From Escherichia phage Ptacy1532: DNA of 64,000 nt. Location: the sequence record PQ863255.1; one strand, given 5' to 3'. Positions 6,951 through 17,354 of the stretch are shown here, one piece after another (the stretch's first letter is position 1; each line of letters starts with the position of its first letter). The position numbers and the translations under genes are program-made. The notes beneath the pieces are model-generated. The model was not told the origin of the DNA. It did not search any database and was given only the letters and a program-made list of their open reading frames with translations.

Positions 6951-8009
6951 ATGGCTAATCCAACTTTATTTGTATCGTATGACCAGAATGGTAAAAAACT
7001 TTCTTTTGCTAACTGGATTTCTGTTCTGTCCCCTCAGGATACCCCGTTCGTATCTATGACCGGTAAAGAGTCTATCAACCAGACCATCTTTAGCTGGCAG
7101 ACCGATGCATTGGCAAGCGTTGACGCTAATAACGCACACGTCGAAGGCTCTCGTGCTGAAGACGGCGAAATGAAACCGACTGTTATCAAATCTAACGTTA
7201 CTCAGATTCTGCGTAAGGTTGTTCGTGTTTCTGATACTGCTAACACCACCGCTAACTATGGTCGTGGTCGTGAACTGATGTATCAGCTGGAGAAGAAAGG
7301 TAAAGAGATCAAACGTGATCTCGAGAAGATCCTTCTGTCCGGTCAGGCTCGTACCGACGTTCTGGCTGACCAGTACCTGACTAACTCTGCAACTGATCCT
7401 GATGTTGTTGGTCTGAACGACACCCATGCAGCTCGTAAGACTGGTGCTTTCCAGTTCCTGTGTGCTCACGGCGGTCTGTCTGGTGGTTTTGTTGACAAGA
7501 CCAAAAATGGTCCTGCTGACCCGGATACTGGTGCAGTAACTGTTAAAGTTGCACAGAATGCTTCTAACCCGACCACTAACATCGGTTTCGACGAAGCTGA
7601 TATCTTTGATATGACTCTGCAACTGTACACCGCTGGTTCTGAAGCAGATATCATCATGATTAACCCAGCTCATGCTAAGATCTTCGCTGGTCTGCAAGAA
7701 AATACTCAGGGTTCACGTAAGCGTATCTTTGAGAACACCAAGCAGTTCATCTACGAAGTTAACAGCATCACTGACCCGCTGGGCCAGAGCTACAAAATCA
7801 TCGTTAACCGTTGGATGCCTACCGATGCAGTTTACTTCTTCCGTAGCGCTGACTGGACCCAGATGGTTCTGCGTGCTCCGAAACGTACTGAACTGGCTAA
7901 AGATGGTTCTTACGAGAAGTGGATGATTGAGATGGAAGTTGGTCTGCGTCACCGCAACCCGTACGCTTCCGGCGTTCTGTTCACTGCTGCGGGAAAGGTG
8001 GTGGCGTAA
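6951..8009 (+). CDS. major capsid protein
   Basis: 352 aa; AGGAG SD; position after scaffold; strong terminator downstream; immediately followed by Ig-like ORF in -1 frame. Confidence 0.7.
   Translation: MANPTLFVSYDQNGKKLSFANWISVLSPQDTPFVSMTGKESINQTIFSWQTDALASVDANNAHVEGSRAEDGEMKPTVIKSNVTQILRKVVRVSDTANTTANYGRGRELMYQLEKKGKEIKRDLEKILLSGQARTDVLADQYLTNSATDPDVVGLNDTHAARKTGAFQFLCAHGGLSGGFVDKTKNGPADPDTGAVTVKVAQNASNPTTNIGFDEADIFDMTLQLYTAGSEADIIMINPAHAKIFAGLQENTQGSRKRIFENTKQFIYEVNSITDPLGQSYKIIVNRWMPTDAVYFFRSADWTQMVLRAPKRTELAKDGSYEKWMIEMEVGLRHRNPYASGVLFTAAGKVVA
7991..7997 (+). other. candidate -1 ribosomal frameshift slippery heptamer G_GGA_AAG
   Basis: Heptamer is aligned X_XXY_YYZ in the capsid frame, 4 codons before the capsid stop; -1 frame is open from 7931 into the Ig-like ORF. 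Confidence 0.5.
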
Positions 8010-8533
8010 CAGTAGACAGTGTGACTGTTAGCCCTGCGTCTTTAGCAAGTCTAGAGACAGGGGCTACTCGGCAGTTCACTGCAAGCGCGGAGAAAAGTGA
8101 TGGTTCTACCGAAACAACTGGCTTTACTTGGTCAGTGACAGGAGGTGGTTCTATCACTCAGTCGGGTTTGTATACTGCTCCGAGTGCGTCTCAATCCACT
8201 GATGTATCCATTACTGCAACTTTAGAAGGTGTTTCTGGTACAGCAACCATTTCTGAAATTGTTGCTCCTGCTCCTACTATTGTAGCTAAGGGTCCAATTA
8301 CGGGTAAAACTGGTGGTTCCTCCACTAATTTCACTACCATGTTTACTGTAACTAATTCTGCTGCTGCGGATTACACGTTTGTTGTAACTCCTACAGAAGC
8401 TGGTACAGTGAGCGCCGCTGGTGCGTTAACCTTAGATGCTGCTGCAAGTGGCGAAGTTACTGTTAAAGCAAGTCTGACAGCTGACCCATCCATCAATGCA
8501 ACATGCACTTTTACTGGTGTAACACCTGCTTAA
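7997..8533 (+). CDS. Ig-like (Big_2-type) domain, probable C-terminal extension of major capsid protein via -1 frameshift
   Basis: ORF track 8021..8533 (GTG start, no SD); sequence VSPASLASLETGATRQFTA...WSVTGGG...GLYTA fits bacterial Ig-like group 2 pattern; no independent RBS. Confidence 0.5.
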   Translation, partial: GGGVTVDSVTVSPASLASLETGATRQFTASAEKSDGSTETTGFTWSVTGGGSITQSGLYTAPSASQSTDVSITATLEGVSGTATISEIVAPAPTIVAKGPITGKTGGSSTNFTTMFTVTNSAAADYTFVVTPTEAGTVSAAGALTLDAAASGEVTVKASLTADPSINATCTFTGVTPA

Positions 8534-8634: not shown

Positions 8635-9387
8635 ATGGCAATGCCAGATGTTCAATACCCCATCAATACCTATGGGTGGCTAAAGAAGGCCGTGGCCCTC
8701 TGGGCAGATAGGGACGATGACGAATTTGTTAATCAAATTCCAAACTTTATTAACTTTGCAGAGAAAGAGATTTATCGTAACTTACGTATCCCTCCTCTGG
8801 AAAAAGAAGTATATCTCAGTATTAAAAATGGAGTGGCTTTTATCCCTCCGGATTATTTACAAGCTCAGTGGATGATGAGAGCTAAAGATGGAGCAATATT
8901 CCAAGTAACTTCTCCAGAAGAAATAAGCTATCGCAAACAACACGGTACAATTAATCCTTCTCATTGGAATAATCAACCTGTTAATTTTGCTCGTTTCGGA
9001 AGTCGTTTCCTTTTCTATCCACTGATTGATGCTGATATTCCCGTTTACCCGGATGATGGAAGTCCTGCTATTCCAGCAGAGAACTCTGTGATTCTTAGTT
9101 ATTATGCAGATCCTCCAGAGTTTCATGCAGATGAAGACACCAGTGCGATACTTACGATTGCTCCGGAACTTCTTCTATATTTTACCCTTAGGCATGCCTG
9201 TCTTTTTGTTCAGGATGATAACGGTGTTCAAAAATGGTCTGCATTAGGTAAGGCTATTCTTGATGAGATGGTTGAGCAAGATAAGAAACAGGAGTATTCA
9301 GGCTCTCCTATTGCGATACCTAATAATATGACCAGACTTCAGAGTAGCCTACCAGATATTTATGGGATACGTACCTCTAGAGTATAA
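8635..9387 (+). CDS. virion structural protein (putative)
   Basis: 250-aa ORF with AAGGAGG SD downstream of capsid gene; function unassigned. Confidence 0.45.
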   Translation: MAMPDVQYPINTYGWLKKAVALWADRDDDEFVNQIPNFINFAEKEIYRNLRIPPLEKEVYLSIKNGVAFIPPDYLQAQWMMRAKDGAIFQVTSPEEISYRKQHGTINPSHWNNQPVNFARFGSRFLFYPLIDADIPVYPDDGSPAIPAENSVILSYYADPPEFHADEDTSAILTIAPELLLYFTLRHACLFVQDDNGVQKWSALGKAILDEMVEQDKKQEYSGSPIAIPNNMTRLQSSLPDIYGIRTSRV

Positions 9388-9396
9388 GGAGATTTT

Positions 9397-12300
9397 ATGA
9401 TCAGTTACAACAACTCAGCACCTAATGCGGTTAATAACGTAGGTCAATTTGGTGCTACAGAAGGCTCTATCGGTGCTTACAAGTCAGCAGCTGAATATGC
9501 AGCTGATTCTAAATACTGGGCGATGCTTTCTCAAAAGAACTACAACAATATTGGTGAGATTCTTAAAGAAGTAGAGAGACTTTATTCAGAAGGCGAGCTG
9601 CTGAAAGCAGATATTGAACAACTCAAATCTGATTTTGAAAACCAAAACCAAATACTTCTAGGACTCATTCAGCAAACTGGTGAAGCTATTGACGACACTA
9701 ATACCGCTATTGGTGAAGCTAATGCAGCAACAGACCGAGCCAATCAAGCAGTACAAGACGTTCTTACTCAGTTAGATAAGATTTCTAATATGTCTGTTGT
9801 TGCCACCACTCTTCCTCCGGGAGCGCCTGCAACTGGAAGTTTTGATAACAGCACAGGTGTTTTCTCCTTCGGTATCCCTGAGGGTCAACCCGGTAAAGAT
9901 GGTAAAGACGGAACGGACGGTACAATCTCTGATATTGGGGATGTTGCCATAAGCACTCCTGTGGCTGATGATTACGGATTCTTTGTGGATAAAGATGATG
10001 GTGGTTTGTATCGAACTCCGATGAGCGAGATTGCTAAGCTAGTTCCGGCAGTGATTAGTTTCAATGGTCGTACTGGTCCAGTTGTTCCAGCTGCTGGGGA
10101 TTATACGGTAAGTCAAGTTACGGGTGCAGCTGCTTCTGGCGTTAACAACGACATTAACCAAATTCGTGGATTAACCACCGCTCTGTCTGTAGCTCAAGGT
10201 GGCACAGGTGCTAAGAATGCAGATGACGCTAGAACTAACCTATCTGCAATGCTTGACTCTAAAACAGGGCTTTCTAGTACAACCGATCTTAATACTCTGA
10301 ATGGAACAAAAGCAGGTTTCTATTACCAACCTATGTCAGCTTATGCTACCACCGAGTTGAACTATCCTGTACCACTGGCAGGATCTTTACTAGTTGTGAA
10401 AACTGGAGCAAACACTGGGTACTCATGTAAGCAAGTTTATAGTTTGTATGATAACCCAAATGTAACATATTCGCGGGTGCTTAATGCTAGCGCAGGTCCG
10501 ACCTCTCCTTGGTCTGCATGGAAACGTCATATATTTACTGAGAGAGTAGAAGAGGGAGCTTCCGCTACTTTCATGTATTCCACTTATTCTCCGGATGCTC
10601 CTAGACTTCAGGTTGGGACTAATGGTTTGTGGGGGTGTCATAACGGAACTAACTGGGTTTCTTTGGCCTTGGCTCAAGGTGGTACTGGGGCAACAACAGC
10701 AGCTGGTGCTCGAGCTAATTTAAACTTGGATAGATTTGGGGCAATTGGCTCTGAGACTCAAATGTTTTCTCCTAGCGGTAGTAAGAAAATCATTATTACT
10801 AATGACAAATGGGGAGCTTATGACATTGCTGCTGCCAAATACCTCCCTTTAGGTATTGACCAAGGTGGTACAGGTGGTGGAACAGCTGATGCAGCTCGTA
10901 TGTCTCTTGTTGCTGCTAAAAGTGGGGCTAACTCTGATATAACCTCAATGACTAATGTGGTCAATTTCACTCAGTCTCCAACAATCCCTGATGCAGTGTC
11001 TTCTAATGAACCTGTTGCTCTTGGACAACTCTCTACAGAGACTGCCGCTTTGGATACGAAGATTACAGAAGCTAAAGATGCTGCTGCTGCTGCTAACACT
11101 AATGCTAACAGTAGGGTTCTTACTTCTCAGCTTTCAAACACATCTGAAGTAGCTCAAGGAGATGCTTTAGTGGGGGTTATGGCTCCCTTCACTGGTGCTA
11201 CTGCTCGTACTCAGCACGACAAGAACCTTGATGTAATCTCTATAGCTGATTTTGGTGGTGGTACAAGCTTGTTAGATAATGGTACTGCTCTTCAAAGAGC
11301 TGTCACTTATGCAGCAACCGCATCCGGTAATAATCGTGGTATGGTCTATATTCCTCCAGGAGTGTGGAATTTTACTTCCGGTGTATCTGTTCCGGGTAAC
11401 GTTTCTATTAAAGGGGCTGGGGTTGGTTCAACCCAATTAAAAATAAACTCTGCAAACTTGGTTTTGTTTGATATTGGTAATGGAACGAATAACCCGAACA
11501 ACGTCAGCATCTCGGATTTGCATGTTCTTGTAAGTTCTACTTGCACAGCAAACCCTTTATTCCGTTTTAGAAATGGATACAATTGTGGTATTGATAACAT
11601 CCGTGTTGATGGACCTTGGTACGATCTTATCCACTTCCGTGGTGGTTCTGCTCAGTTCATCTATCGTGTCTCGGATAGTATTCTAAATGGGACTACTACT
11701 AGCCGTCACACAATAACCATCGGTGAATCCTCAGCAGATGGTGTTGTTCAAGATGTGTTCTTAACAAACTTAGTTCTTGGTGGGAAAACCACTGGATATG
11801 GTGTTTATGAAAAATACTCTTCTGGTGTATATGCTACTAATGTTGACTCTCTTACTGTCAACGTAGGCTGGGCTTGGGAACCTGCTACTGGGTGCTACTG
11901 CAAAGGTAGTTTCTACACTGCAATCCTAGGAGATACTAACTCTACGGCTGGTCTTAGAATTAGACCTCAGGCTGGTACAACAGTTAGCGACTTAACTTTC
12001 AATGGGTGTTGGGCAAGTTCCGCTGGGTCTAACAGTTCTCATCATGGTTTGATCATTGATAGTTCTGCTGGTACTGTAGCAAACATTAGCTTTAATGGTT
12101 TAACTGCTGTGAATAACAAAGGTCATGGTGTCTACATTAATGGATCTACCAATGGATACGGTTATGAGTTCACAAACCTTAGTGTTTCTAATAACAGTCA
12201 AGCTGGTGCTTCTCTGTGTAGTGGTATGAAAATTGTAGCCGGTTCTTCTCACATAAACATTTCTAATGGTCATGCGGGTGGTACTCTTGGTTTAGGTACA

Positions 12301-12681
12301 AACAACCAAGCCTATGGTATTGACGTTGAGGCTGGTACTGGCAACTCTATTAAAATTGTAAACATGGAGATGCACAATAATAAGCTCGGGGCTATGAATT
12401 TTGGGGCAACTGGTCCTTACAATAGGATTGAAGGGTGTTCACCTTTTAGAACTCGTATGAAAGGGTCAGTAGAGCTTAAAAATGGTACATCCTCTATTAC
12501 AGTAAACCCAGGTTTGAACAGACCGTTCGGTGGTGCTGATGTGCAGGTTACTCCTACTACAGATCTAGGCGCTTTGCGCTATTGGGTTACCCAGAGTGGG
12601 AATAGTTTTACCATCAATACCAATGCTAACGTCAGCGGTGGTCAGTGGTTCTCTTGGGCTGTTGATGCATCTTATAGTTAA
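9397..12681 (+). CDS. tail fibre / tailspike protein with beta-helix domain
   Basis: 1094 aa; three copies of a GGTGA..A.AR.NL repeat typical of phage tail-fibre repeats; C-terminal half rich in N/G/S/T repeats consistent with a right-handed beta-helix. Confidence 0.65.
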   Translation: MISYNNSAPNAVNNVGQFGATEGSIGAYKSAAEYAADSKYWAMLSQKNYNNIGEILKEVERLYSEGELLKADIEQLKSDFENQNQILLGLIQQTGEAIDDTNTAIGEANAATDRANQAVQDVLTQLDKISNMSVVATTLPPGAPATGSFDNSTGVFSFGIPEGQPGKDGKDGTDGTISDIGDVAISTPVADDYGFFVDKDDGGLYRTPMSEIAKLVPAVISFNGRTGPVVPAAGDYTVSQVTGAAASGVNNDINQIRGLTTALSVAQGGTGAKNADDARTNLSAMLDSKTGLSSTTDLNTLNGTKAGFYYQPMSAYATTELNYPVPLAGSLLVVKTGANTGYSCKQVYSLYDNPNVTYSRVLNASAGPTSPWSAWKRHIFTERVEEGASATFMYSTYSPDAPRLQVGTNGLWGCHNGTNWVSLALAQGGTGATTAAGARANLNLDRFGAIGSETQMFSPSGSKKIIITNDKWGAYDIAAAKYLPLGIDQGGTGGGTADAARMSLVAAKSGANSDITSMTNVVNFTQSPTIPDAVSSNEPVALGQLSTETAALDTKITEAKDAAAAANTNANSRVLTSQLSNTSEVAQGDALVGVMAPFTGATARTQHDKNLDVISIADFGGGTSLLDNGTALQRAVTYAATASGNNRGMVYIPPGVWNFTSGVSVPGNVSIKGAGVGSTQLKINSANLVLFDIGNGTNNPNNVSISDLHVLVSSTCTANPLFRFRNGYNCGIDNIRVDGPWYDLIHFRGGSAQFIYRVSDSILNGTTTSRHTITIGESSADGVVQDVFLTNLVLGGKTTGYGVYEKYSSGVYATNVDSLTVNVGWAWEPATGCYCKGSFYTAILGDTNSTAGLRIRPQAGTTVSDLTFNGCWASSAGSNSSHHGLIIDSSAGTVANISFNGLTAVNNKGHGVYINGSTNGYGYEFTNLSVSNNSQAGASLCSGMKIVAGSSHINISNGHAGGTLGLGTNNQAYGIDVEAGTGNSIKIVNMEMHNNKLGAMNFGATGPYNRIEGCSPFRTRMKGSVELKNGTSSITVNPGLNRPFGGADVQVTPTTDLGALRYWVTQSGNSFTINTNANVSGGQWFSWAVDASYS

Positions 12682-12688
12682 TTCTAAT

Positions 12689-12708
12689 AACCCTCTTCGG
12701 AGGGTTTT
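12689..12708 (+). terminator. putative terminator
   Basis: CCCTC-TTCG-GAGGG stem-loop followed by TTTTAG. Confidence 0.45.
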
Positions 12709-12777
12709 AGTAGTACTTAGGTGAGACAGATAATGAATTCAATATGAATGAAAGGTTAATACATAGGAGACACTCAA

Positions 12778-12996
12778 ATGAAAATGATGAAACAAGCTGT
12801 ATACGGTTTAGTTTGTCTAGGTGCTGGAGTTGTTGTATCAACAGCGGTTCCAGTCAGTGCAGTCCATCCACTTGTCACTTCTCCTGCTCCAGTAGAGAAG
12901 CTTAGTTCGCAGTGTAAGCAGAGAACTATTCAAAACAATTTGGTTGTTATTTGTCCTGATGCTGAATCTAACGCTCTGAGAAAGATACTACCTTAA
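12778..12996 (+). CDS. small membrane protein, possible holin
   Basis: 72 aa; N-terminal hydrophobic segment VYGLVCLGAGVVVSTAVPV; AGGAGA SD; directly upstream of endolysin. Confidence 0.3.
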   Translation: MKMMKQAVYGLVCLGAGVVVSTAVPVSAVHPLVTSPAPVEKLSSQCKQRTIQNNLVVICPDAESNALRKILP

Positions 12997-13025
12997 TTTA
13001 AAGGGACCACGAAAGGAGGTTAGAA

Positions 13026-13517
13026 ATGGATAACGTCGCATTGCCACCTGTACAATTAAACTTAAGCCCAGCTGGAATGGAATTCATCATGAAGCATGAG
13101 GGTATGAGAACCAAGGCTTATAAAGATTCCGCAGGCATCTGGACGATATGTGTAGGGGCTACGCGCGATATGAATGGTTATCCGGTTAGGCAAGGATTAA
13201 CATATTCTATAGAGGATTGTCTAGCTCTGCTAGATAGAGACACACAAGACTCTGTTCGTGCTACTCAGAAAAACATAAGGGTTCCTTTGCTAGTTCATGA
13301 ATTTGATGCACTCACATCTTTCAATTTTAATGTGGGAAGTGGTGCACTAAGTACATCCAAGCTAAGGAAAGTTATCAATGGGGAAGTTAAGGGTGATATA
13401 TACTCAGAGTTTCTTCGTTGGGATAAAATTACGGTGAAAGGAAAGAAGCAGAGAAGTCAGGGTCTTCATAACAGAAGGGTTGCGGAAGCTGATCTTTATA
13501 CCGAAGGTAAATATTAA
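13026..13517 (+). CDS. endolysin, GH24 lysozyme family
   Basis: 163 aa; MKHEG...YKDSAGIWTICVG motif region matches the T4/P22-type lysozyme catalytic core; AAGGAGG SD. Confidence 0.8.
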   Translation: MDNVALPPVQLNLSPAGMEFIMKHEGMRTKAYKDSAGIWTICVGATRDMNGYPVRQGLTYSIEDCLALLDRDTQDSVRATQKNIRVPLLVHEFDALTSFNFNVGSGALSTSKLRKVINGEVKGDIYSEFLRWDKITVKGKKQRSQGLHNRRVAEADLYTEGKY

Positions 13518-13529
13518 TGGAGGTGCCTT

Positions 13530-14333
13530 TTGGCTATTGAAACTAATGCGGTCGTCATTACTGACCTAAACCCGCTCTATCCCAGAGATAGGGATTATAT
13601 CTACGAAGGGGCGGCTCAAATCCGCCTCATCAAACAAACACTAAAGAACACATTCCCTAATGTCACTGAACCTGTTGAGATTGATTCTGATACATTTAAG
13701 ATCATGTCAGAGAAACTCAAATTTACCGGTGATGCAATGGATGTTGGCGGTCTTATGATTAAGAACGCTGCTCCGGGAACTGGAGATAAAGATGTTGTTA
13801 CTAAAGGCCAGATGGAGGCTTTTATGAACAACTGGATGGAAAATAAAGTATTCCGTATTGGGTCTTACTATATCACTGAAGAAGATGTTAATCCGGGTGA
13901 TTCTATCTCTCTTGGGTTTGGCTCTTGGGCTAAAGTTACTGGCGTTATCATGGGTACTGGTGTTGTCAACCCTGATGGTACAGTTCCTAATGCCTCTAGG
14001 GTTGAGTTTACTTCTGGGGCTACTGGTGGTAGGATTTTCAACACAGTTCAAACAGAGAACTTACCGTTGATGACTATTAATGGTTCGAGCTTTTCTGTTT
14101 CCAGTAACACTCACGCACACAACATTAACTTTGGTCGTGGGGATGCTAGCGGTCACAATAGTTCCCCTAACTGGTATAGTCCCGGTTCTGGATTTACCCA
14201 CAGAACAGAGTCTGATACTCACACCCACACAATATCTGGTTCTGTTAGTTTTGGACGTGACGACATATCTCGTCAACCTATTAACACTTTGCCACCATTC
14301 AGAGCGGCTCACATCTGGAGACGTATTAGCTAA
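13530..14333 (+). CDS. tail fibre protein (putative)
   Basis: 267 aa; TTG start with GGAGG SD; C-terminal His-x-His repeats (HAHNINFG, HTHTISG) as seen in fibre tips. Confidence 0.45.
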   Translation: MAIETNAVVITDLNPLYPRDRDYIYEGAAQIRLIKQTLKNTFPNVTEPVEIDSDTFKIMSEKLKFTGDAMDVGGLMIKNAAPGTGDKDVVTKGQMEAFMNNWMENKVFRIGSYYITEEDVNPGDSISLGFGSWAKVTGVIMGTGVVNPDGTVPNASRVEFTSGATGGRIFNTVQTENLPLMTINGSSFSVSSNTHAHNINFGRGDASGHNSSPNWYSPGSGFTHRTESDTHTHTISGSVSFGRDDISRQPINTLPPFRAAHIWRRIS

Positions 14334-14342
14334 GGAGGAATT

Positions 14343-17300
14343 ATGGCGTTGTATCCAATAAAATCACTCGGTGCTGTCGGTGTTATTGCTGACCAAGCAC
14401 CTACTGATTTAGCTCCTAATGCTTTCACTAACGCTATAAACGCTCGGTTTGTTGAGCAGAGAGTTTTTAAGACGGGGGGCAACGCCCCTCTTTCTTACGT
14501 AGATGAAGATAAAGATTTAACTCCTCTGTCTTTCATATCTATGCCTTTCGATTACTATAGTGCAGGTAATAGCTTTCTTATTGTAGGCACTGACAAGAAG
14601 CTATATAAACTGACAGATGAAAGCTTGACTGATATCAGCAGAAAAGTCGCTACGGTGACTAAAAAAGCCTCTGCTACTATCAAAATATATCCTGTGGTCT
14701 CTAGGATTACCCCTAAAGAGTCTACTATTTCCATGAACTTCAATCAAACTAAATCTTTAGAAGTTACAATATCTCCAGAAGATGCTAATAATCCTGAACT
14801 TGTTTGGAGTGTTAGTAACCCTTCTTACGGTCAGATTACTGTAGACCCTACTGACTCTAAGAAAGCCTCTTTGACCTCTTTGAATAAAGAAGGCAATCTC
14901 GTAGTGACGGTCCAGACTAAAGATGAATCTGTATCAGCTCAGATTGCTGTCAATATTATTGACGGAGACTCAGGTATCTTCTTGAGTCAAGATACTGTAA
15001 CAGTTCGTAAAGGTGGTAATACCACAATAACTGCGGTGACTGGTAAAACTCCTGTAAGTTGGTCCACTACTAACGGTTCTATCGTTTCTGTGACTCCTAA
15101 TGCTAACACACTCACGGCAGTGCTTGTTGCTAATGGAGAAGGAACAGCAACTATCACAGCGGATAACGGAACTAAAACTGCATCATGCGTTGTTAATGTA
15201 ATACCACAGATTGACAGTATCACTCTGAGTCAAACAGATGTTACCATTAACAGAGGGACTCAATATATTCTTACAGCTACAGTATCTCCAACGAATGCTC
15301 CTAATAAAAACATAACATGGACTTCCTCTAACCCGAATATTGCTACAGTATCTGGTACAGGTACAGAGGCAACCATTACTGCGATTACAGCTGGCTTCAC
15401 TGAGATTACCGCTACTACTCAAGAAGGCAGCAGAACCGCTGTCTGTACAGTTCGTGTAGATTTGTCTGGAAGGATGATGAGAACCTCTCTTATGGCTATG
15501 TCTTCTACTGAACCAGATGCTCCAGAAGTGGTTGAGGATGTAGTAGTTCCTGAGTCAGAAGAGGTTTTGTATTTTGCATCACCTTCCTCTGGGATAGATA
15601 CTACTGGAATGTCTGAAGGGAATAGCTTCTATGATTATTCAAACGTGGATGACATGGAGGGTTTTGCAAGAGCTTCTCTTTTTGCCACCCCTTTAGATTC
15701 TGTAACGTTAGATGTAGTTAGTGCTTCTCTGGATGTAGGAGAGGAGATTGTTATTACAGCTACAGCTTCTCCAGAGGGTGATTATTCTTACTTGTGGTCT
15801 GTTGATAAGACTGGGTATGTATCGACTACTTCTGTAACTGGTAAGTCTATAAAACTTACAGCTCTTCGTAAAGGTGAGATTAACATAACATGTTCTGTCA
15901 GTCAAATGACACAGAGGGATTATGATGCGTTTGATGACTACCCTTGGTATCATGCTGTTATATCGAACTGTGTTGTTGCTACTACTCACTATGAAACCCC
16001 TCAAGTAAAAGAGTTCGAGTCTGAATACTTTACCGACCTTCCGGGATGGGGAGAACAAACAGTAGTAGATAACGATGGGAACCCCTCGGTTAAGAAGTTC
16101 AACTGGAAGTGTGAAAGGGTTCGCTCTTTTAATAACAGACTCTTTGCTCTGAACATGAGGGAGTCAAACGCTTCTGGCGTTACAACTAACTACCCGCTTC
16201 GTCTTCGTTGGTCTAATTTTGCTAATGAGAACAAAGCTCCTACATTGTGGGATGACTTTGCCTACGATCGTTTAGTAACGTCTGACTTAGCTTCGAATAT
16301 AGTCGGGCAGACTGAAGCTCTGGAAAATGGTTATGCTGGTTACATTGATTTAGCAGACTCCAATGGCAGCTTGATTGATATCCTACCTCTTAAAGATTAC
16401 TTGTTCGTTTACACGGAGTTTGAAACGTATATTGGTTCTCCAACTAATAACACATACCAACCTCTAATGTTCAAGAAACTCTTTAACGATTCAGGTATCC
16501 TTGCCCCTGAGTGTGTAGTAGAAGTTGAAGGCAGCCATTTCGTTGTTACTCAGAATGATGTGATCTTGCATAATGGTGCAACTAAGAAGTCAATTGCTTC
16601 CAACCGTGTCAAGAATATGCTGATTAACGAGATATGTCTGGTCAACCCATTAGCTACCAGAGTTCACTTACATCAAGATAAAAAGGAGGTTTGGATTCTT
16701 TATGTAGGTCCGGGAGAGCCTAAGGAAAGTTATGCTTGTACTAAAGCTGCTGTATGGAATTATGAGTTTGATACTTGGTCTTTCCGTACTATTCCTTATG
16801 CTCAATGTATCGGTTTGGTTGATCCTCCTGTTCTTGAAAGAGGTCCGATCTGGGCTGACTTCCAAGAGATTTCTTGGGATGACCCATCAATCAAAGAGCT
16901 TGTCTGGAGAAAAGATGCAACAAACTTCCGTCAGAGGATAACCATAGTAGGTTCTTTCTTACGTGGATTCTATCAAGTGGATATAGGTTCTTTAGACTAT
17001 TTCTATGACAGGCTTAATGATGTTGTTATAGAAAAACCTCTTGAGATGAGATTAGAGAGAACAGGTATTGACTTTGATAACATCACAAATGAGTGGAATC
17101 AGAAGCATGTTAACAGGTTTAGACCTCAAACCACAGGCTCTGGGACTTACACATTCGAAGCAGGAGGTAGTCAATTCTCAAACGAATATGGTCATCCACA
17201 CACATCTAAAACATACACAATCGGTGTTGATAGGCATGTCTCTGTGAGACTGAACCATCCATACCTTTTCTATAATGTTATAGATAATGATGTTAACAGT

Positions 17301-17354
17301 AATGCTGCTATCAATGGTTTAACGATAGAGTTTGCTGTTGGCGGGCGGAGATAA
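14343..17354 (+). CDS. large structural protein with Ig-like (Big_2) domains
   Basis: 1003 aa; AAGGAGG SD; several repeated segments of the type TVTVSP....WSVSNPS..A.V typical of Ig-like group 2 domains. Confidence 0.55.
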   Translation: MALYPIKSLGAVGVIADQAPTDLAPNAFTNAINARFVEQRVFKTGGNAPLSYVDEDKDLTPLSFISMPFDYYSAGNSFLIVGTDKKLYKLTDESLTDISRKVATVTKKASATIKIYPVVSRITPKESTISMNFNQTKSLEVTISPEDANNPELVWSVSNPSYGQITVDPTDSKKASLTSLNKEGNLVVTVQTKDESVSAQIAVNIIDGDSGIFLSQDTVTVRKGGNTTITAVTGKTPVSWSTTNGSIVSVTPNANTLTAVLVANGEGTATITADNGTKTASCVVNVIPQIDSITLSQTDVTINRGTQYILTATVSPTNAPNKNITWTSSNPNIATVSGTGTEATITAITAGFTEITATTQEGSRTAVCTVRVDLSGRMMRTSLMAMSSTEPDAPEVVEDVVVPESEEVLYFASPSSGIDTTGMSEGNSFYDYSNVDDMEGFARASLFATPLDSVTLDVVSASLDVGEEIVITATASPEGDYSYLWSVDKTGYVSTTSVTGKSIKLTALRKGEINITCSVSQMTQRDYDAFDDYPWYHAVISNCVVATTHYETPQVKEFESEYFTDLPGWGEQTVVDNDGNPSVKKFNWKCERVRSFNNRLFALNMRESNASGVTTNYPLRLRWSNFANENKAPTLWDDFAYDRLVTSDLASNIVGQTEALENGYAGYIDLADSNGSLIDILPLKDYLFVYTEFETYIGSPTNNTYQPLMFKKLFNDSGILAPECVVEVEGSHFVVTQNDVILHNGATKKSIASNRVKNMLINEICLVNPLATRVHLHQDKKEVWILYVGPGEPKESYACTKAAVWNYEFDTWSFRTIPYAQCIGLVDPPVLERGPIWADFQEISWDDPSIKELVWRKDATNFRQRITIVGSFLRGFYQVDIGSLDYFYDRLNDVVIEKPLEMRLERTGIDFDNITNEWNQKHVNRFRPQTTGSGTYTFEAGGSQFSNEYGHPHTSKTYTIGVDRHVSVRLNHPYLFYNVIDNDVNSNAAINGLTIEFAVGGRR

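Follow-up and report, generated by a model that had tools for sequence, protein, structure and literature searches.

A Kuravirus long tail fibre gene that joins a conserved fibre stem to a predicted beta-helix tailspike module

A single long tail fibre gene

The 64,000 nucleotides (nt) of Escherichia phage Ptacy1532 analysed here (PQ863255.1; this whole stretch is called the window below) contain, at 9397-12681 on the plus strand, a gene for a long tail fibre whose C-terminal part resembles a tailspike. The window belongs to a Kuravirus, a phiEco32/SU10-like podophage of Escherichia coli with a prolate head. Its bases 1-25000 share 96.8% DNA identity with Escherichia phage vB_EcoP_WFI101126 (WFI101126) and 90-95% with some fifty further Kuravirus records. 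A first-pass annotation, made from the letters alone, had described the gene as a tail fibre with a triplicated GGTGA repeat and a C-terminal region like a beta-helix, and had proposed it as a host-range determinant with depolymerase activity. Wherever this interpretation could be tested computationally it was supported, and we give a probability of roughly 0.6 to the reading that the gene encodes a complete Kuravirus long fibre in one polypeptide, ending in a beta-helix that recognises and probably cleaves a surface glycan.

The gene is one intact open reading frame (ORF) of 1094 amino acids (aa), closed by a TAA stop codon at 12679-12681. A strong ribosome-binding site, the Shine-Dalgarno sequence AAGGAG (9386-9391, plus strand), is separated from the ATG by 5 nt and shares bases with the stop codon of the upstream adaptor gene. 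Behind the stop codon, at about 12689-12709 on the same strand, the hairpin AACCCTC-TTCG-GAGGGTT followed by a T-run resembles an intrinsic terminator. It went unreported by a pattern scanner because the T-run is short; the WFI101126 record has a terminator annotated at the same place.

Over its full length, the protein is 92.5% identical to gp012 of WFI101126 (YP_010674194.1; MK373770), which is annotated in GenBank as tail fiber protein/pectate lyase superfamily protein. The two come from the same genus, lie at the same locus with the adaptor on one side and the holin on the other, and agree in domain order and nearly in length (1096 aa in WFI101126 versus 1094 aa). They are 96% identical in the beta-helix module and differ chiefly in two variable cassettes, described below. 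The same fibre gene is also carried by phage Ptacy1479. Scans of the full-length protein against Pfam and NCBIfam gave matches to DUF3516, Geminin, and an Ala-zipper only, all discarded as spurious because they reflect the composition of the N-terminal coiled coil.

The N-terminal stem

The virion-proximal part of the protein (aa 1-242; 9397-10122, plus strand) comprises a predicted adaptor-docking N-terminus, a coiled coil, and a conserved Kuravirus shaft. It matches residues 1-229 of SU10 gp12 (PDB 7z47_D; phmmer, E 1.6e-74) and the family phrog_10305 (E 3.7e-76), and the N-terminal ~240 aa are 53% identical to phiEco32 gp14. In SU10, gp12 is the proximal long-tail-fibre protein, of which residues 1-90 bind the adaptor ring and begin the coiled coil, while the distal half of the fibre is formed by a second protein, gp13 (PMC9509320). 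The fibre gene lies directly downstream of the adaptor homologue, as in WFI101126 and phiEco32. This position and the match to SU10 gp12 bear out the assignment as a tail fibre. SU10 gp12 and phiEco32 gp14 resemble the protein in the N-terminus, in linkers of the GGTGA type, and in their position after the adaptor gene; they differ in that they end in Phage_tail_C_2 and need a partner, gp13 or gp15, with an S74 chaperone, in contrast to the fused beta-helix found here.

The proximal shaft also contains a collagen-like stretch of four G-X-Y triplets, GQPGKDGKDGTDG (aa 163-175; 9883-9921). SU10 has two triplets fewer, as seen from a 6-residue gap in the alignment with gp12.

Linker motifs and variable cassettes

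Three copies of a short motif follow on the plus strand. The first occurs in an extended form, SGVNNDINQIRGLTTALS-VA-QGGTGAKNADDARTNL (aa 247-282; 10135-10242), of which QGGTGAKNADDARTNL is the core (aa 267-282; 10195-10242), and aligns to residues 458-507 of SU10 gp12 and to the gp47 fibre 8vbx_R. In alignments, the second, QGGTGATTAAGARANL (aa 427-442; 10675-10722), is matched by ARGGLGANTAAGARNNIG in the R1 pyocin fibre and by residues 516-546 of SU10 gp12. The third, QGGTGGGTADAARMSL (aa 489-504; 10861-10908), is followed by SGANSDITS (aa 509-517; together 10861-10947) and aligns to 8vbx_R. As the third copy reads GGTGG instead of GGTGA, the overall pattern is QGGTG[AG]..AR..L. Chance does not account for the three copies: none of 5000 shuffles of the protein contained the full motif, and a single one of 5000 contained at least three bare GGTG strings.

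The segments between the motifs were dissimilar in a self-BLAST (no similarity at E<=1), so that a tandemly duplicated domain marked by the motifs was rejected in favour of a recurring short motif. The observation of a triplicated GGTGA repeat in the N-terminal half is confirmed, apart from the letters of the third copy and with the correction that what recurs is a short motif and no domain. The extended form, (S)GANSDITS..GLTT.LS..QGGTGA..A..AR.NLG, is common to SU10 gp12, the gp47 fibre 8vbx_R, and phiEco32 gp14, and is the alignment consensus among hundreds of prophage and metagenomic fibre proteins. By these alignments, the three motifs represent a widespread, generic tail-fibre linker that bears no relation to the beta-helix.

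Between the first and second motifs lies a globular domain resembling a pyocin knob (variable cassette 1; aa 297-425; 10285-10671), recognised by phmmer, Foldseek, and the names of its homologues. The similarity of aa 297-443 to the R1 pyocin fibre 6cl5_A is weak (phmmer, E 1.3e-3; 23-27% identity); at NCBI, the name 'pyocin knob domain-containing protein' is given to the closest database relatives of the region, a set of E. coli prophage fibres with 57% identity. An AlphaFold2 (AF2) model of the middle region (aa 230-578) gives weak support, with a predicted local distance difference test score (pLDDT) of 66 and a predicted template modelling (TM) score (pTM) of 0.38. Its only meaningful Foldseek matches were the R1 and R2 pyocin fibres (6cl5 and 6cl6), with probabilities of 0.97-0.99 but a TM score of 0.15. 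In these fibres, the portion to which aa 297-443 align is Knob2-plus-Shaft, including G-G-x-G-A..AR.N; they end in a lectin-like foot, unlike the beta-helix here. A small beta-rich segment (variable cassette 2; aa 445-488; 10729-10860), with AF2 strands of low to moderate pLDDT at residues 235-254 of the modelled fragment, lies between the second and third motifs.

In R-type pyocin fibres, knobs are joined by interdigitated 'helix-plus-turn' linkers, and Knob2 is the most variable domain, proposed to determine specificity and putatively to bind lipopolysaccharide (LPS) (PMC6116203). The RBPseg atlas lists the 'pyocin knob' as a mobile pseudo-domain of tail fibres (PMC12143355). As the AF2 model of the middle region has short helices directly after GGTGA, and given the pyocin precedent, the motifs may be read as trimer-forming linkers that frame insertable globular cassettes. 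The pattern of divergence from WFI101126 would fit such an arrangement: nucleotide identity is 71-76% across aa 297-396 (10285-10584) of the knob cassette and 61% across aa 447-496 (10735-10884) of the second cassette, against about 85-99% in the rest of the gene and near 90% in the motif-bearing segments. At the protein level, both cassettes are 61-84% identical. Such divergence between conserved motifs suggests either that the cassettes are exchanged or that a second binding site is under diversifying selection.

A predicted beta-helix tailspike module

The shaft is followed by a long alpha-helix (aa 542-576; 11020-11124, plus strand), predicted with a pLDDT of up to 88 at residues 313-347 of the middle-region fragment, which probably forms a trimeric coiled-coil neck. 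Next comes a conserved tailspike junction and N-terminal cap, GDALVGV..RTQHDKN..DFG (aa 584-640; 11146-11316), which also marks a recombination boundary. It matches the Sf6 tailspike 2vbe at E 1e-10 (hhalign probability 97.8%), with 38% identity over the junction and N-cap, and is the only stretch in common with many tailspikes of Kagunavirus, Klebsiella, and T7-like phages. The body of the module (aa 615-1010; 11239-12426) is predicted to be a right-handed parallel beta-helix, which putatively binds and cleaves glycans; tailspike modules of this type bind sugars of the bacterial surface and in most cases cut them. The protein ends in a beta-sandwich of six predicted strands (aa 1015-1094; 12439-12678; AF2 pLDDT 74-92), which is conserved in close homologues, not across the wider family.

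An AF2 model of aa 557-1094 (pLDDT 80, pTM 0.73) consists of stacked short strands followed by the six-strand C-terminal domain, and most ten-residue blocks of the helix score 75-95. The beta-helix anticipated by the first-pass annotation therefore appears in the predicted structure. The composition it had remarked upon, rich in N, G, S, T, and V, is found in aa 560-1000 (G 13%, S 10%, N 10%, A 9%, T 9%, V 8%), and both strings that it had quoted are present (NNKGHGVYINGS at aa 906-917 and GTNNQAYGIDV at aa 967-977). Foldseek placed the Sf6 tailspike first (TM about 0.55 over the whole module) and HK620 next, and most of the nearest structural neighbours are enzymes. The Sf6 endorhamnosidase tailspike (2vbk, 4urr) has a like layout of junction, beta-helix, and C-terminal beta-sandwich; it differs in showing no detectable sequence similarity beyond aa 685 of the window protein, and in having a short P22-type head-binding domain of its own where a 580-aa fibre precedes the module here. 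The fragment aa 557-1094 scores 29.0 bits against Pfam PF12708 (cutoff 27), a family matched by 6 of 7 members of the beta-helix family. No match to Peptidase_S74 (PF13884) was found at the C-terminus of the fibre protein.

One-gene architecture and exchange of the module

A single fibre gene separates adaptor and holin in the window, in WFI101126, and in FH3, as against two in phiEco32 and Paul. Next to the window's fibre gene there is no gene for a distal fibre protein of the gp13 or phiEco32 gp15 type; the next ORFs encode a holin and an endolysin, and phiEco32 gp15 resembles the window protein only in a 73-aa linker stretch. The locus of phiEco32 and Paul encodes a fibre protein of 880 or 1150 aa alongside a 722-aa protein that carries an S74 chaperone. 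The 'tail spike protein' of phage Paul was considered as a precedent for the beta-helix, and was rejected as an ordinary distal fibre of the phiEco32 gp15 type. WFI101126 was reported to have one fibre gene fewer than other kuraviruses and to plaque on only 1 of 64 strains (Korf et al., PMC6563267). The published long fibres of Gordonclarkvirinae have been described as two-protein, non-enzymatic, O-antigen-dependent receptor binders (PMC11990801; PMC11522302). Given its one-gene fibre, the window phage therefore belongs to a minority in which a fused spike takes the place of the two-protein fibre.

Homologues of the whole module, with 43-88% identity over more than 90% of its length, occur in unrelated phage contexts, behind N-termini as different as the T7 tail-fibre N domain, the TSP1/gp66 Tail_spike_N domain, Calx-beta, or almost nothing. 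In the phage database, only WFI101126, Ptacy1479, Minorna, and AV102 carry the complete module. The tailspike of Minorna and AV102 (506 aa, 'pectate lyase superfamily protein') is 43% identical over 93% of the module, including the C-terminal domain; unlike the fibre described here, it stands alone as a short tailspike, has hardly any fibre at its N-terminus, and is encoded in a genome of ~43 kb. Conversely, the FH3 fibre has aa 1-621 in common with the window protein (73% identity), after which its C-terminal part differs and closes with an S74 chaperone. Because homology stops at aa 621, the exchange point falls within the conserved junction. The same module on unrelated phage chassis, together with the switch seen in FH3, agrees with the earlier proposal of a host-range determinant: the module behaves as an exchangeable host-range module.

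The FH3 gene (9908-13618) and its counterparts in 1-6af and 1-6bf encode a 1236-aa single-gene fibre, whose C-terminal module combines a weak endosialidase-like match with an S74 chaperone. By its sequence, this fibre appears to be a second, independent 'one-gene' design in the phage group.

Candidate catalytic residues

An exhaustive homologue search with the module yielded 582 cluster representatives at E<=1e-3, of which 47 also passed E<=1e-30, and 156 sequences were aligned. D846 is an aspartate in 152 of the 156 (97%), in a family otherwise about 25-55% identical. Two further positions are conserved to a lesser degree: D817 is Asp in 72% and acidic in 80%, and D786 is Asp in 67% and acidic in 76%. 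W872, N907, N933-S934, Q971, Y973, and N995 are also conserved across the family. H882, K908, and E805 are invariant only in close relatives (for E805, 6 close homologues), not across the wider family; E805 was dropped as a catalytic candidate, since the wider family has Leu, Ile, or Val there. The near-invariance of D846 favours catalysis, with D817 and D786 as possible partners.

Proposed function and alternatives

In the mechanism that we propose, the complete long (lateral) fibre would be a single polypeptide, presumably assembled into a homotrimer, with six fibres to each virion. As in SU10 gp12, the N-terminal ~240 aa would attach the fibre to the adaptor ring and supply the proximal coiled coil. 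In the middle shaft, short interdigitating linker motifs (..GLTT.LS..QGGTGA..AR.NL) would hold two inserts, the knob-like domain and a small variable segment, and a helical neck would connect this shaft to the exchangeable tailspike, made up of the junction, a right-handed beta-helix of ~400 aa, and the C-terminal beta-sandwich. The beta-helix would recognise one E. coli surface polysaccharide, most likely the O-antigen, on which Gordonclarkvirinae depend (PMC11990801), and would probably cleave the same glycan. By cutting its way down through the glycan, the phage would bring its short tail fibres to the LPS core, where the nozzle would form. That the protein is a long tail fibre with a receptor-binding beta-helix module is highly probable; that this module is catalytically active is somewhat more likely than not. 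For an active module, a hydrolase of O-antigen seems to us slightly more likely than a lyase of capsule.

Several observations weigh against this proposal. Retaining or inverting hydrolases normally need two carboxylates, and a second invariant one was not found among the 156 aligned sequences beside the single near-invariant D846. D786 may be structural, as a comparison of the sequence with DSSP strands places it at a repeating position of the coil pattern. No homologue with measured activity spans the catalytic part. None of the catalytic residues of Sf6, whose catalytic carboxylates are Glu366 and Asp399, could be mapped by hhalign or hmmsearch: only the junction and N-cap align (Sf6 132-228 and 103-265, respectively), and past the N-cap and the initial coils the sequence similarity to solved enzymes is lost. 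The AF2 model of the module rests on a 7-sequence alignment and represents a monomer only, and the match to PF12708 is marginal, being lost in a scan of the full-length protein (none at E<=1). Finally, a text search of the paper on WFI101126 (PMC6563267) found no mention of plaque halos, and the long fibres of Gordonclarkvirinae in the literature are non-enzymatic (PMC11990801, PMC11522302).

This literature, together with the missing second carboxylate, is also what speaks for a binding-only adhesin, in which the beta-helix would serve as a reversible tether to a surface glycan like the published long fibres of the subfamily. We consider this unlikely, as an aspartate kept in 97% of a family otherwise 25-35% identical, along with conserved Trp, Gln, and Tyr, points to an active site more than to a binding surface free to vary. 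In addition, the nearest structural neighbours are mostly enzymes, and classical short tailspikes, that of phage Minorna among them, carry the same module. The fold itself is common to hydrolases, lyases, epimerases, and pure adhesins. The GenBank name of the WFI101126 homologue ('pectate lyase superfamily') speaks for a lyase, or another modifying enzyme, that acts on an acidic capsule (K-antigen or colanic acid) instead of a glycoside hydrolase (GH) that acts on O-antigen, and the conserved positions include Asn, Gln, and Tyr, residues employed by lyases and epimerases. Against it, the beta-helix as such does not tell these chemistries apart, with the hydrolases GH87, GH28, and GH110 and the hydrolase tailspikes of Sf6, HK620, and CBA120 scoring equally well, and a conserved Lys, Arg, or His base was not found in the family, in which K908 and H882 vary. 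With related phages dependent on O-antigen (PMC11990801), a capsule-directed enzyme seems somewhat less probable still than a mere adhesin. Searches of the literature and supplements for the host serotype of WFI101126 or Minorna returned a strain number (101126) and nothing on the O or K type.

Alternatively, specificity could stem mainly from aa 297-496, where the knob-like domain and its neighbouring cassette lie, leaving the beta-helix secondary or structural. Both cassettes are the parts most divergent from WFI101126, and pyocin Knob2 offers a precedent as the most variable and presumed specificity-determining domain (PMC6116203). However, the beta-helix is the part that is exchanged among phage chassis and between FH3 and the window phage, the knob scores are weak (E 1.3e-3; TM 0.15), and both sites may act together, so that we regard this as very improbable.

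Our preferred reading of a one-polypeptide fibre with a probably cleaving beta-helix could be extended into a fuller picture, which we hold only tentatively and consider doubtful as a whole. The protein would then be a hybrid receptor-binding organelle, in which a flexible Kuravirus fibre of ~580 aa, with a lectin-like site in its knob upstream, is fused covalently to an active depolymerase. The latter would use the single near-invariant D846 in a so far undescribed active site, would represent a family of roughly 580 representatives of which no member has been characterised or solved over the catalytic part, and would replace the non-enzymatic two-protein fibre regarded as typical of Gordonclarkvirinae.

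Neighbouring genes and other observations

The fibre gene is preceded by genes for the major capsid protein (6951-8009), an immunoglobulin-like (Ig-like) ORF (8021-8533), and the gp11-like adaptor (8635-9387), and is followed by those for the holin (12778-12996), endolysin (13026-13517), short tail fibre (13530-14333), and nozzle protein (14343-17354). From capsid to nozzle, this order is that of WFI101126, and also that of phiEco32 except for the one extra fibre gene there.

The 1003-aa ORF at 14343-17354 corresponds in position and length to the SU10 nozzle protein gp17. Four Ig-like domains are annotated in its homologue in phage Paul. RefSeq names the homologues 'hypothetical protein' in WFI101126 and 'tail fiber protein; host specificity' in phiEco32, labels that look outdated in light of the SU10 structure.

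A canonical -1 slippery heptamer, G_GGA_AAG (7991-7997), lies 9 nt ahead of the stop codon of the major capsid gene, and from there the -1 frame is open into the Ig-like ORF. A fusion of capsid protein and Ig domain through programmed frameshifting therefore seems likely from the sequence; such a fusion is annotated in phage Paul and reported in phiEco32. Across the window, GC skew turns from positive to negative at ~28 kb, which fits the switch in orientation between the structural and replication modules of kuraviruses.

Implications

The protein is an ordinary modular phage receptor-binding protein, of which a 92.5%-identical homologue is already annotated in GenBank. The modularity of fibres and spikes and the existence of beta-helix depolymerases are textbook phage biology, and current concepts are left unchanged by this finding. 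Of modest interest are the fusion of fibre and spike in one polypeptide in a Kuravirus, the variable cassettes bracketed by motifs, and a beta-helix family without a characterised member. The fibre protein is likely the primary host-range determinant of the phage. As a swappable module on a conserved stem, with the joint at about aa 584-621, its tailspike portion would be useful for host-range engineering and for mining serotype-specific depolymerases. For the genus, the locus indicates that some Kuraviruses replace the usual non-enzymatic, two-protein long fibre by a single fusion of fibre and spike.

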